Positions 17,121 to 53,719 of a stretch of 64,000 nt of DNA are shown here, piece after piece. Every line of letters begins with the position of its first letter. The stretch's first letter is position 1. The position numbers were made by a program, and so were the translations under genes. The notes under the pieces are model-generated. The model was not told where the DNA came from. It was given only the letters and a program-made list of their open reading frames with translations, and ran no database searches. Source of the stretch: a virus; IMG/VR virus record IMGVR_UViG_3300032288_004022, positions 31,572-95,571 of that record; one strand, written 5' to 3'.

Positions 17121-17149
17121 TTGACCAAAAATAAGCCTTTTGCTATAAT
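17121..17149 (+). promoter_or_regulatory. Early sigma70-type promoter (repeat unit 1)
   Basis: TTGACC-17 bp-TATAAT with extended -10 TG. Confidence 0.85.
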
Positions 17150-17174
17150 TGGGACTTAACAACAAGGAGCCCCG

Positions 17175-17384
17175 ATGGGATATCGCGTTTTGGATACTGT
17201 GGACAACATGCGTCAAAAATACGGTGCCCGTGCTGGGCTTGAAGGCCCGTTCAATTTCTCAGGCCGAGTGTTGTATTATGACAACAAAGAAGGTGCATAC
17301 TACGATCCCACTACAGATTTCTACGTCAGCCGCGAAGAAATGGACGCGATCAACGCTGATTTCTACAAAATCCTCAAAAAGTAA
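17175..17384 (+). CDS. Small early protein
   Basis: AAGGAGCC RBS, own promoter; LEGPF...YYD.KEG.YYDP..D.Y. Confidence 0.8.
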   Translation: MGYRVLDTVDNMRQKYGARAGLEGPFNFSGRVLYYDNKEGAYYDPTTDFYVSREEMDAINADFYKILKK

Positions 17385-17407: not shown

Positions 17408-17436
17408 TTGACCAATATTTCCCGATCTGCTATACT
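17408..17436 (+). promoter_or_regulatory. Early sigma70-type promoter (repeat unit 2)
   Basis: TTGACC-17-TATACT with extended -10 TG. Confidence 0.8.
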
Positions 17437-17465
17437 GTAGTCATAGTGAGCAAAAAGGAGCCGAA

Positions 17466-17690
17466 ATGATTCGCAGTGAGTACGAAGCACGAATTCCCGC
17501 AACTGAGATCTACAGCTACAGTGGTGTGATCACTGTGGAAGACAGCGGCGGCGAGTTGGTGCGTTTCACAATCCAACGCGAAACTGCATGCGATCGTCGC
17601 TGGGATGTGGTCAGTGACGCCATGATCCCCCGCGCAATGGCTGCTGGTCTCTTGGTCGATAAGCCCCTGTTGAGCCAAGAATTGGCTTGA
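17466..17690 (+). CDS. Small early protein
   Basis: AAGGAGCC RBS, own promoter. Confidence 0.75.
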   Translation: MIRSEYEARIPATEIYSYSGVITVEDSGGELVRFTIQRETACDRRWDVVSDAMIPRAMAAGLLVDKPLLSQELA

Positions 17691-17715
17691 CCAAAAATTC
17701 CCATTTTGCTATAAT
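17687..17715 (+). promoter_or_regulatory. Early sigma70-type promoter (repeat unit 3)
   Basis: TTGACCAAAAATTCCCATTTTGCTATAAT, identical to 53661-53689. Confidence 0.85.
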
Positions 17716-17745
17716 AGAAGCATAGACAGTAACAAGGAGCCAGAA

Positions 17746-17922
17746 ATGAACTTTGAACAAGCCATTGAAATCGTCCAAGAATACAAACAAGATTGGGCCT
17801 TGCCCGGATTGCTGGAGACCCTGCAGCAGATGCAGGATTGCTACGACGATCTCAGCGGCCAGGAAGCCCGTGCATATCGTGTGGTTTTTCGTGAAATGGG
17901 CCGACTGTTTGCCCCGGCCTAA
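17746..17922 (+). CDS. Small early protein, 58 aa (MNFEQAIEIV...RLFAPA), absent from the ORF track
   Basis: AAGGAGCC RBS + ATG at 17746, TAA at 17920-17922, between two promoters. Confidence 0.75.
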   Translation: MNFEQAIEIVQEYKQDWALPGLLETLQQMQDCYDDLSGQEARAYRVVFREMGRLFAPA

Positions 17923-17926
17923 ACGG

Positions 17927-17955
17927 TTGACCAATAAATCCCCTTCTGCTATAAT
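17927..17955 (+). promoter_or_regulatory. Early sigma70-type promoter (repeat unit 4)
   Basis: TTGACC-17-TATAAT with extended -10 TG. Confidence 0.85.
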
Positions 17956-17985
17956 ATGTTTTTAACGCACAAAAAGGAGCCAACT

Positions 17986-19008
17986 ATGAGTGCAATTCGT
18001 GTTTTGCGTGGTGTGTATCGCAATCAGCCTGTGCAAGATGTTTCGTTTACTCTTGTCAAAGGGTTTCAGACTGGTGCCAAAGGCGGGTTTGTTACGGTAA
18101 AAAATGAGGGACAGTTCCCCGGTTTTGCACCCACCATCCGTATTACCATTGACAACATCGCTGACATCGAGTATACTAACGGCATGACACAAGACAATAC
18201 CGTACATTTTGAGAAGCCCGCCCCTGTTGCGGAGTCCGATGAAGAAGCAATGACTCGTATCCGCGAGCGTTTTGAAATCCTGACTGAAATGACCAAGGCC
18301 ACTGTGAGCGGCGACATCCGTGCCATGATTGTGTCGGGGCCCCCTGGCGTTGGCAAGAGCTTTGGCGTTGAAACCGAAATTGAAAAGGCTTGCCTTTTTG
18401 ACAAACTGGCCGGCAAGCGACTGCGTGCCGAAGTTGTCAAAGGCTCGGCTACCCCGATTGGCTTGTTCCAAACCCTGTACAAATACTCGGATGAGAATTG
18501 TGTTATTGTGTTTGACGACTGTGATAGCATTTTGCTGGACGACGTGGCTCTTAACTTACTGAAGGGTGCTCTTGACTCCGGCAAAAAGCGTACCATTTCG
18601 TGGTTGAGTGAGAGCAGTGCTCTGCGCCGCGAAGGTATCCCGGATCGTTTTGAATTCAAAGGCTCGGTGATCTTTATCACCAACTTGAAGTTTGACAAAA
18701 TGAAATCGCAGAAATTGCGTGATCACTTGGACGCACTGCAATCGCGCTGTCATTATCTGGACCTGACCTTGGACACCATGCGTGACAAACTGTTGCGCAT
18801 CAAGCAGATTGCCAAGGACGGTGTGCTGTTTGCAGACTATGACTTTGAAGAAGCTGTGCAAGACGACATCATTGACTTCATGCATGTCAACAAGGATCGA
18901 CTGCGTGAAGTGAGCCTGCGCATGGCGCTGAAGATTGCAGACTTGCGTAAGCTGTCTGTGCTGAACTGGAAGCGCCTGGCAGAAACCACTTGCATGAAGA
19001 CTGCCTAA
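17986..19008 (+). CDS. Early P-loop (AAA-like) ATPase
   Basis: Walker A GPPGVGKS, Walker B IVFDDCD, FITN sensor, ALQSR arginine finger; AAGGAGCC RBS. Confidence 0.85.
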   Translation: MSAIRVLRGVYRNQPVQDVSFTLVKGFQTGAKGGFVTVKNEGQFPGFAPTIRITIDNIADIEYTNGMTQDNTVHFEKPAPVAESDEEAMTRIRERFEILTEMTKATVSGDIRAMIVSGPPGVGKSFGVETEIEKACLFDKLAGKRLRAEVVKGSATPIGLFQTLYKYSDENCVIVFDDCDSILLDDVALNLLKGALDSGKKRTISWLSESSALRREGIPDRFEFKGSVIFITNLKFDKMKSQKLRDHLDALQSRCHYLDLTLDTMRDKLLRIKQIAKDGVLFADYDFEEAVQDDIIDFMHVNKDRLREVSLRMALKIADLRKLSVLNWKRLAETTCMKTA

Positions 19009-19054
19009 ACACGATAGAGTTATACTGGGCATTGGTTGGCTCCGGCCCAGTTTT

Positions 19055-19087
19055 AACAGGTACCCCTAAAAAGGTACCTGTTTTTTT
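19055..19087 (+). terminator. Rho-independent terminator
   Basis: AACAGGTACC-loop-GGTACCTGTT followed by a T run. Confidence 0.85.
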
Positions 19088-19114
19088 GACTTTGTCCAGC
19101 AATAAGTATATAAT
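19086..19114 (+). promoter_or_regulatory. sigma70-type promoter, probably giving a leaderless mRNA
   Basis: TTGACT-17-TATAAT; ATG 6 nt after the -10 box, no SD. Confidence 0.7.
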
Positions 19115-19120
19115 AATAAC

Positions 19121-19660
19121 ATGTCTGAACAAATACTAGGAAAATCTGTAACCGTGATTGCCCCAACCAATCTTTACAAGTGGGCAAGAGTCTGGGGAAG
19201 AATCCAAAAAGGATATTATCAAGATACTGTTTATCTTCGTAGAGAAAAACAGATAGAAGATTTTGTGATCCTTAATCAGTTTGCAAATCTCTACATCGAA
19301 AAAGACACTGACATTTTAGAAAATTTAACCTCGGTAGCACAGCCCAACCAAGCCGATTTGATCATAATCACCGATCAAAAGTTCAGCAGATTGCCATGTC
19401 CTGCATTAATTGACAAGATTGAATCCTTGCTTGATCAGTGCCCGAGAATGTTTGTTTGCCTGAACAGGCACTACATCAACATTGACAGTAGTTTTGTTGA
19501 TCCAACAGTTGATGATCATTACCCATTGGCAATTACTCAATGGCTTGTTAAAAATCTACCCACAGCTAGAGTATTAGATTTAAGCTTGGATTATTTAGAC
19601 TGTGGCGATTGGTTCACTTGGGTAGTGCCTGACAGAATGTATTTTATAGAACGCACATGA
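19121..19660 (+). CDS. Hypothetical protein
   Basis: 179-aa ORF coupled to the next gene. Confidence 0.7.
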   Translation: MSEQILGKSVTVIAPTNLYKWARVWGRIQKGYYQDTVYLRREKQIEDFVILNQFANLYIEKDTDILENLTSVAQPNQADLIIITDQKFSRLPCPALIDKIESLLDQCPRMFVCLNRHYINIDSSFVDPTVDDHYPLAITQWLVKNLPTARVLDLSLDYLDCGDWFTWVVPDRMYFIERT

Positions 19661-23212: not shown

Positions 23213-23484
23213 TGGGCAGTCTCCGGCCTGGCGCCACATACATCTATGAGCGAGCAGATGGTGTTGTGTATGCTCGAGAGTCAGGTGCAGACCCCAGCAC
23301 AAGACAGGTAATTGGAATGGATTACGATCCAAGAACCCCTGACCGACGTCCTTTGCATGATCACATCTCTGAAGACAAATTGTGGGGAGAAATACGGCGA
23401 GCTGCCCGCACCAATCCCACTTTACAGGATGCACTGAACCGCGCTATAATGATTTACCAACTGAGTAAAACCAATGATGCCTGA
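23212..23484 (+). CDS. Hypothetical protein
   Basis: Coupled ORF (TAATG). Confidence 0.7.
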   Translation: MGSLRPGATYIYERADGVVYARESGADPSTRQVIGMDYDPRTPDRRPLHDHISEDKLWGEIRRAARTNPTLQDALNRAIMIYQLSKTNDA

Positions 23485-23716
23485 AGAACAGGAAGCACAC
23501 AATGAGTGGAACGATGGCCGCACAAGGTGGAAATACAAGACCTTGACTTTGCACGAGGGTGAGCTGACTGACCAACTCACCACACATGGAGTGTTTGGAT
23601 GGGAACTGGCAGCAATGCACCCTGACAAAAGAAACAATTCTTCTGTAAATTGTTTTATTGTGGTAATGAAACGCCCTTTTTGGTTCGAACAGCCGCCGGA
23701 GCCATCCAATGAGTGA
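23474..23716 (+). CDS. DUF4177-like small protein
   Basis: WKYK...L...G..GWEL.....MKRP pattern. Confidence 0.55.
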   Translation: MMPEEQEAHNEWNDGRTRWKYKTLTLHEGELTDQLTTHGVFGWELAAMHPDKRNNSSVNCFIVVMKRPFWFEQPPEPSNE

Positions 23717-53218: not shown

Positions 53219-53276
53219 GAGATCCCCGCAAGGGGCTCTTCTTTTGGTTGACCAAAAATTGCCATTTTGCTATAAT
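53219..53276 (+). promoter_or_regulatory. Stem-loop plus early promoter (repeat unit 5)
   Basis: CCCC-GCAA-GGGG hairpin with a T tract, then TTGACC(53248)-17-TATAAT. Confidence 0.85.
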
Positions 53277-53308
53277 ATTGACATAGCGTAACAAAACAGG
53301 AGCCCAAC

Positions 53309-53659
53309 ATGGCATACATGAGTCAAGAGCACAAAGCACGTCTGGCCCCCACTATCAAGGCCATCTGCAAACGGTATGGCATCAAGGCCACGCTCAGTGT
53401 TCGCAATCACAGCAGCCTGGTGTTGACTGTGAAACAAGGCAACATTGACTTTGGCGGCAATCATGTTCAAGTCAATCCCTATTGGTATCACGAACACTTC
53501 ACTGGCCGTGCAAAAGATTTCCTCTCGGAAGTGATCCCTGCTATGAAAGGCCCAGAATTCTTTGACCATTCTGATGCCCAAACTGACTACTTTCATTGCA
53601 GTCACTACGTTGACGTCAACATTGGTCGCTGGAATCAACCCTACGCTCTAGTCAAGTAA
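53309..53659 (+). CDS. Early hypothetical protein
   Basis: AGGAGCC RBS; DHSDAQTDYF motif. Confidence 0.8.
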   Translation: MAYMSQEHKARLAPTIKAICKRYGIKATLSVRNHSSLVLTVKQGNIDFGGNHVQVNPYWYHEHFTGRAKDFLSEVIPAMKGPEFFDHSDAQTDYFHCSHYVDVNIGRWNQPYALVK

Positions 53660-53660
53660 C

Positions 53661-53689
53661 TTGACCAAAAATTCCCATTTTGCTATAAT
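53661..53689 (+). promoter_or_regulatory. Early promoter (repeat unit 6)
   Basis: Identical to 17687-17715. Confidence 0.85.
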
Positions 53690-53719
53690 ATTGACATACC
53701 GCAACAAACAGGAGCCGCA

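Follow-up and report, generated by a model that had tools for sequence, protein, structure and literature searches.

That an anti-Shine-Dalgarno (SD) element at the 3' end of an mRNA can repress the same mRNA is a known principle (icaR and OppZ/CarZ; long-range anti-SD effects, PMC12697547), and autoregulation by an mRNA's own 3' end has been described for a handful of bacterial genes. In Staphylococcus aureus icaR, an anti-SD motif in the 3' UTR pairs with the mRNA's own SD region and blocks the initiation complex (PMC3868564). The motif is a generic UCCCCUG in a 3' UTR of more than 100 nt, and the resulting duplex is cut by RNase III (PMC3868564). OppZ and CarZ of Vibrio cholerae are autoregulatory small RNAs (sRNAs) derived from 3' UTRs (PMC7398697; reviewed in PMC9438474). 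RNase E generates both RNAs, which require Hfq and exert negative feedback on their own transcripts; OppZ targets an internal cistron and triggers termination by Rho (PMC7398697). In Bacillus subtilis, pyrimidine-rich, anti-SD-like words located hundreds of nucleotides from a ribosome-binding site (RBS) base-pair with that site, blocking initiation and promoting decay (PMC12697547). For genes of virulent or giant phages, our literature search found no report of an mRNA regulating itself through its 3' end.

Masking of an RBS by a complementary RNA is also the basis of c4, an antisense RNA of phages P1 and P7 (immI). The c4 RNA is cotranscribed with its target, lies upstream of it, is released by RNase P and serves temperate-phage immunity; related phages carry different matched pairs (heteroimmunity). 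In the RNA-OUT/RNA-IN system of IS10, RNA-OUT forms a stable hairpin, and its loop makes the first contacts with the target mRNA, whose RBS-bearing 5' end is unstructured. The two RNAs are complementary over about 35 nt, RNA-OUT being a genuine antisense transcript.

We analyzed a window of 64,000 nt (positions 31,572-95,571) from the IMG/VR record IMGVR_UViG_3300032288_004022, which is 95.6 kb long, has 46% GC and is ~27% complete (CheckV). A similarity search found no DNA similarity between the window and known phages. The gene of interest (17986-19008, + strand, as are the promoter, target site, hairpin, linker, terminator, GGAGCC sites and 23709 site described below) encodes an AAA-type ATPase of 340 amino acids. 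It starts with the ATG at 17986, stops at 19006-19008 and is the first gene of its transcription unit and, in this genome, the sole one. Annotation searches returned AAA and PHROG 1250 (function unknown) and nothing more, and a sequence search found no homolog of solved structure. ATPase homologs in cultured phages, which are PA5oct-like and T4-like, reach only 36-41% identity, while hundreds of relatives at 75-96% identity occur in IMG/VR lake metagenomes.

The ATPase unit has a near-consensus sigma-70-type early promoter (17927-17955: TTGACC, 17 nt, TATAAT, TG extension), which is part of a promoter-leader module present in six near-identical copies in this genome. The leader is ~24 nt long, and fold prediction shows no significant structure in it. 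It contains the RBS GGAGCCAAC (17976-17984) and, extending over SD and spacer to 1 nt before the AUG, the putative target site GGAGCCAACU (17976-17985). At the other end of the unit, an intrinsic terminator (19055-19087) combines a GC-rich stem of 10 bp and a loop of 8 nt (stem 19055-19082) with a run of seven U residues that ends at 19087. The terminator stem also covaries among relatives.

The 79-nt tail that follows the ATPase stop consists of a hairpin (hairpin 1), the U-rich linker UUUAA (19052-19056; U-rich in every class of relatives defined below) and this terminator. Hairpin 1 (19024-19051) thus sits between the ATPase stop and the terminator. It has a 7-bp covarying stem, formed by ACTGGGC (19024-19030) and GCCCAGT (19045-19051), around the 14-nt loop ATTGGTTGGCTCCG. 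A first-pass annotation of this DNA had pointed to this stem and loop and to an exact 9-nt complement of the ATPase RBS, and we confirmed all three in the sequence: loop bases GUUGGCUCC (GTTGGCTCC in the DNA; 19035-19043) are the exact reverse complement of GGAGCCAAC at 17976-17984. G19034 can additionally wobble-pair with U17985 and extend the duplex to 10 bp, so that the seed GGUUGGCUCC (19034-19043) would form nine Watson-Crick pairs and one G.U pair with 17976-17985. Hairpin 1 was also considered as a terminator and rejected; it has no U run of its own.

The 79-nt tail folds far better than shuffled sequences (z = -4.5), and a joint fold of leader and tail is ~7 kcal/mol more stable than the two folded separately. 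In the minimum free energy (MFE) structure of hairpin 1, UGG (19033-35) pairs with CCG (19042-44) and closes a UUGGCU hexaloop; six of the nine seed bases are predicted to be free in the isolated hairpin and the other three paired. A 10-bp loop-to-strand helix would need the hairpin stem to breathe. The duplex between RBS and seed is short (9-11 bp). When other units of this genome were scanned for anti-RBS matches ahead of their terminators, a match at a true SD was found only for the ATPase unit.

Several features of this arrangement resemble icaR. In both, an element in the 3' UTR complements the SD region of its own message. The phage seed differs from the generic icaR motif in that it also reads the gene-specific spacer, and it is displayed in a loop directly before the terminator of a 79-nt tail (PMC3868564 for icaR). 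The phage element further differs from icaR in belonging to a lytic-type giant phage and in occurring as many matched classes. Distance should be no obstacle to such pairing, given the long-range effects of anti-SD-like words in B. subtilis (PMC12697547). Those words, however, are synthetic or avoided, being depleted from genes, whereas the phage seed is under selection and maintained (PMC12697547 for B. subtilis).

We searched IMG/VR for relatives of the ATPase locus in three scans and obtained 155 distinct loci, 144 of which have a terminator in reach. A promoter lies directly 5' of the ATPase in nearly all 155 loci. The element, present as a hairpin or as a seed-plus-hairpin module, is the last feature before the terminator that ends the unit, and the gap between ATPase stop and element (4 to 2078 nt) holds variable small ORFs. 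Most loci have promoter, gene, element and terminator in colinear order. The seed is found in one of two layouts: within the loop of hairpin 1, or as a single-stranded stretch just 5' of a small hairpin. Both layouts continue with a U-rich linker, a GC-rich terminator and a U tail, and a U-rich stretch often precedes the hairpin. In many loci (including L006, L008, L015 and L018), a ~30-codon hydrophobic ORF (MAW(I/L)GV...GH...) overlaps the ATPase stop (TAATATG) and lies between ATPase and element; this ORF is missing in the window.

The layout recalls OppZ and CarZ. As in those systems, the element lies at the 3' end of an operon mRNA, shares the operon's intrinsic terminator (in all loci), would be made one-to-one with its target and matches an RBS of its own operon. 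The phage element resembles the Hfq-dependent RNase E products of V. cholerae by layout only, and its target is the first cistron, unlike the internal cistron on which OppZ acts (PMC7398697 for OppZ and CarZ).

Taken alone, and after multiple looks, a 9-nt match is weak evidence. Among random 50-nt windows drawn from the related loci, 28 of 12,758 (0.2%) contained a run of at least 9 nt complementary to the RBS region, and with ~100 genes in a phage fragment and many looks, a single such match at this per-window rate is not rare. The match could then have been a functionless coincidence and hairpin 1 a mere 3' stabilizer or terminator accessory. The comparative data show that the match is not due to chance. 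We compared the -20 to +3 region of each ATPase gene with the 50 nt before its downstream terminator and counted contiguous Watson-Crick pairs. At least nine pairs were found in 127 of the 144 distinct related loci and at least eight in 136 of 144. Together with the eight matched classes described next, this effectively refutes coincidence, to which we assign next to no probability.

We identified at least eight specificity classes in which RBS and seed have switched together (GCCAAC, GCUAA, GCGAAA, GUUGGC, CUAGUAA, CUAGAAA, GCAAAA and GUAGC). The majority class pairs the RBS GGAGCCAAC(C) with the loop seed (G)GUUGGCUCC; sequence variation is unrestricted in the stem and in the 5' half of the loop. 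Thirteen loci in three separate clades pair the RBS GGAGCUAA(C) with the seed (G)UUAGCUCC. Other matched combinations of RBS and seed are GGAGCGAAA with UUUCGCUCC (L092/93), GGAGUUGGC with GCCAACUCC (L103/106), GGGCUAGUAA with UUACUAGCCC (7 loci) and GGGCUAGAAA with UUUCUAGCCC (about 20 loci). GGAGCAA is matched by UUGCUCC (L197/199), and GGGAGUA by UGCUCCC, with one G.U pair included (L108 group). When every class was compared with every other in a matrix, the longest match was the cognate one for all six main classes. The first-pass annotation had proposed that homologs would tell whether the loop covaries with the RBS, and they show this covariation very strongly: functional pairing of the anti-RBS loop with the gene's own RBS, comparable to that of OppZ and CarZ with an RBS of their own operon, is supported across eight classes.

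A quick maximum-likelihood ATPase tree places the minority classes inside the majority class and implies nine or more label changes. In several class switches, the entire leader and the entire hairpin are replaced rather than single bases. These switches look like module exchange, so the classes outnumber the truly independent compensatory events, yet the pairs that survive are matched ones. Weak matches of 7 bp were found in L107, L125 and L197/199. L125 (4020-4045) has a GCGAAA-type seed, UUUUUCGCUCC, together with the RBS GGAGCUUUAAA; the two are partly mismatched (7 bp + 3 bp) and are perhaps caught in transition between classes. Among cultured phages, Pseudomonas phage PA5oct (L142, MK797984.1; 2470-2490 and 3655-3685) encodes an ATPase with 41% amino acid identity and the RBS AGGAGUAGCAU. 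A hairpin lies 21 nt after its ATPase stop; the 3' arm, AUGCUACU, complements the RBS (8-nt match), and the 5' arm copies the RBS. This hairpin is a possible cultured-phage counterpart of the element. The cultured homologs of Citrobacter phage Ci1 and Vibrio phage D506 showed no such match.

Covariation between two sites could also arise in DNA. A short inverted repeat bound as double-stranded DNA by one protein (a repressor, a recombinase or a protein acting at the ends of a mobile cassette) would covary around a gene cassette through the specificity of that protein, and the resemblance of several class switches to module exchange fits such a scheme. Several observations instead implicate RNA. 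First, the hairpin 1 stem is represented by ~50 different sequences among relatives. In an alignment with element boundaries taken from single-sequence folds, it is 91.7% paired and shows double-sided changes at all seven pairs. The alignment contains 69 compensated cells compared with 13.2 in shuffles (0 of 500), and slid controls collapse. Second, many stems include U.G pairs that work on the + strand only, being A.C mismatches on the opposite strand. Third, wobble pairs replace Watson-Crick pairs in the intermolecular helix of L155, L182 and L108 and at the tenth pair of the window. Finally, the matched stretch slides between lineages and varies from 7 to 11 nt, which suits a duplex and not the DNA word of a protein. 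The stem covariation with strand-specific U.G pairs and the wobble-compensated variants identify the feature as RNA, and loop and ATPase RBS almost certainly pair as such.

The geometry of the two copies also argues against DNA binding. The downstream copy always lies in the loop of, or just 5' of, a covarying hairpin whose U.G pairs form on the + strand only. The upstream copy is always SD plus spacer at a fixed distance from the AUG, and the content between the two copies is variable. Sliding matches of 7-11 nt with G.U positions would be equally foreign to a protein-binding repeat. We therefore regard the DNA-level explanation as very unlikely.

Described RNA families offer no direct match. 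In searches against Rfam 15, no hit reached the gathering score in the whole window and nothing relevant appeared at E<=10 in 17900-19150. A c4-type RNA was considered and ruled out; the element lies 3' of its target, adjacent to a terminator, and no tRNA-like fold or Rfam hit was found. The phage element thus contrasts with c4 in being placed before the terminator of an early operon in a T4-like giant phage. Compared with RNA-OUT, the phage pair lies on the same strand, is separated by ~1 kb or more and is limited to 9-11 nt.

Our favored explanation, which we consider probable, is negative translational autoregulation by a 3'-end anti-RBS element, acting either in cis (icaR-like) or as a 3'-derived sRNA (OppZ-like). 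The ATPase unit would be transcribed from its strong sigma-70 promoter to the intrinsic terminator, and the hairpin loop before the terminator would display GGUUGGCUCC for pairing with the ATPase SD and spacer, GGAGCCAACU. A block of 30S binding is expected because the duplex spans the SD up to 1 nt before the AUG, and ATPase translation would be lowered as a result. The outcome would be negative feedback at one regulator per message. In the cis route, contact would occur within the full-length mRNA once the 3' end has been made; colinearity and one-to-one stoichiometry agree with 5'-3' pairing within one molecule, as in icaR (PMC3868564). In the trans route, the regulator would be a ~65-nt 3' fragment comprising hairpin 1, U-rich linker, terminator and U tail, a layout that fits an Hfq-type, 3'-derived small RNA. 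Such a fragment may accumulate. For this uncultured phage, any involvement of RNase E or Hfq is suggested purely by analogy.

Six loci (L017, L028, L029, L030, L037 and L039) bear on the choice between the two routes. They contain a terminator, a promoter and an extra gene of ~300 amino acids between ATPase and element, with the insertion ~25-70 nt after the ATPase stop, so that regulator and target are on different primary transcripts. In all six, the seed has kept its match to the ATPase RBS rather than matching that of the inserted gene. Read-through or trans action is therefore required in these loci.

We infer repression, rather than activation, only from the position of the duplex over the SD. 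The covariation itself supports pairing of either sign, including a positive or protective role in which joining of the 5' and 3' ends stabilizes the mRNA against 5'-end-dependent decay or shields the SD's GGAG from a phage endonuclease of the RegB type that degrades early mRNAs. Both have parallels: the hbs mRNA of B. subtilis is reportedly stabilized by 5'/3' pairing, and T4 RegB cuts GGAG in early RBSs. However, the duplex covers the SD and stops 1 nt short of the AUG, the classic position for an initiation block. Pfam searches of the record, which is ~27% complete, returned neither a RegB or RegA family member nor the controls. A positive or protective function is in our estimation improbable.

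The reach of the proposed repression beyond the ATPase is a separate question. We identified six copies of one promoter-leader module (TTGACCAA..TGCTATAAT..AGGAGCC) at 17121-17175, 17408-17466, 17687-17746, 17927-17986, 53248-53310 and 53661-53702, each of which drives a small early gene. The six early-cassette genes with GGAGCC that had been proposed as an early regulon are thus real and correspond to the six copies of this module, which look like a repeated, possibly homogenized, expression cassette. The RBS word that could pair with 6 nt of the seed is found at 17166-17171 and again at 17457, 17736, 53299 and 53711. It is not exclusive to the early cassettes: the gene at 23709 and a gene for a 377-amino-acid protein outside the window also use a GGAGCC RBS. 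Nor is GGAGCC enriched in the window, where 20 occurrences compare with 17.4 expected.

A trans-acting sRNA that silences all GGAGCC-tagged early genes, and not just the ATPase, could in principle act as an early-to-middle switch, a reading suggested by the invariant AGGAGCC of the six modules in this genome. For five of the six modules, that of the ATPase included, unconstrained duplex energies range from -16.9 to -20.8 kcal/mol. GGAGCC is found in 66 of 145 neighboring cassettes (46%) of GCCAAC-class relatives compared with 3 of 22 in other classes, and two of three neighbors in the GCAAAA class have GGAGCA(A), fitting the changed seed. The six loci with an inserted terminator and promoter also imply that trans action is possible, and the RBS of gene 23709, which belongs to a different transcription unit, matches at 16/17 nt. 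However, neighbors mostly do not follow a changed seed: cognate neighbors number 0 of 11 in the GCUAA class and 0 of 7 in the CUAGUAA class, and L083 retains a GGAGCC neighbor though its own seed is GCUAAC-type. The cassettes share just 6-7 nt with the seed, and the 23709 match is absent in 80 of 80 homologs of gene 23709. If the repeated promoter-leader module has evolved in concert, a shared tag needs no regulation, and homogenization of this module explains the neighbor pattern no less well than a regulon. Because concerted evolution can account for the RBSs of the neighbors, the ATPase is the only universally tracked target. Regulon-wide shut-off through GGAGCC sites, as the first-pass annotation had envisaged, is therefore not established and seems to us unlikely, with a wider regulon possible in some lineages.

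The match at gene 23709 is specific to this lineage. The RBS and AUG of this 148-amino-acid gene (23695-23711) are complementary at 16 of 17 nt to 19030-19046, with a duplex energy of -32.9 kcal/mol, which makes the site a candidate second target. It is shared with the identical contig L201 and was found in none of 80 relatives of the 148-amino-acid gene. The site is carried in the 3' end of an 80-amino-acid ORF (23474-23716), which looks inserted in this lineage because it is placed between the conserved leader context of the relatives and the 148-amino-acid gene. The 23709 site may be a newly recruited trans target or a product of chance.

Compared with the described systems, three things are new: the element belongs to a phage, its seed is gene-specific in that it extends into the spacer, and many covarying classes exist. 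Because it covers the spacer beside the SD in addition to the SD, the seed shows that anti-RBS sequences can be specific to a single gene. The eight matched classes in ~150 loci form an unusually rich natural record and amount to ready-made compensatory mutants for direct testing, and the orthogonal RBS/anti-RBS pairs are potential parts for synthetic translation control. The arrangement also provides a simple annotation rule for a new RNA element in freshwater jumbo-phage genomes.

A more speculative proposal, which we consider doubtful, is that a trans-acting phage sRNA underlies the classes, with the seed/RBS combinations serving as orthogonal 'addresses' that selection keeps distinct. Lytic phages would then have an RNA-based code of incompatibility or exclusion. 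If so, closely related giant phages of one lake, which sometimes meet in one cell, would shut off one another's ATPase when they belong to the same class. Changing both partners would then escape or impose cross-regulation, in a manner comparable to P1/P7 heteroimmunity. In some lineages, this one included, GGAGCC cassettes and gene 23709 may have become additional targets of this RNA. Such trans action between phages would represent a new kind of phage-phage interaction.

We also noted two promoter-like features around the ATPase gene. A strong promoter-like site lies inside the ATPase ORF (18149-18177: TTGACA, 17 nt, TATACT). As a source of RBS-less transcripts it is unsupported; only 60 of 105 relatives retain its -35, and the site is therefore probably a by-product of the conserved peptide. 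Downstream of the element, in the region 19081-19123, the U run of the terminator overlaps the -35 (TTGACT, 19086) of the next promoter. The -10 of that promoter ends 6 nt before the ATG at 19121, and the next gene is thus apparently leaderless. The TTTTTTTGACTT junction between terminator and next promoter is conserved in most relatives.
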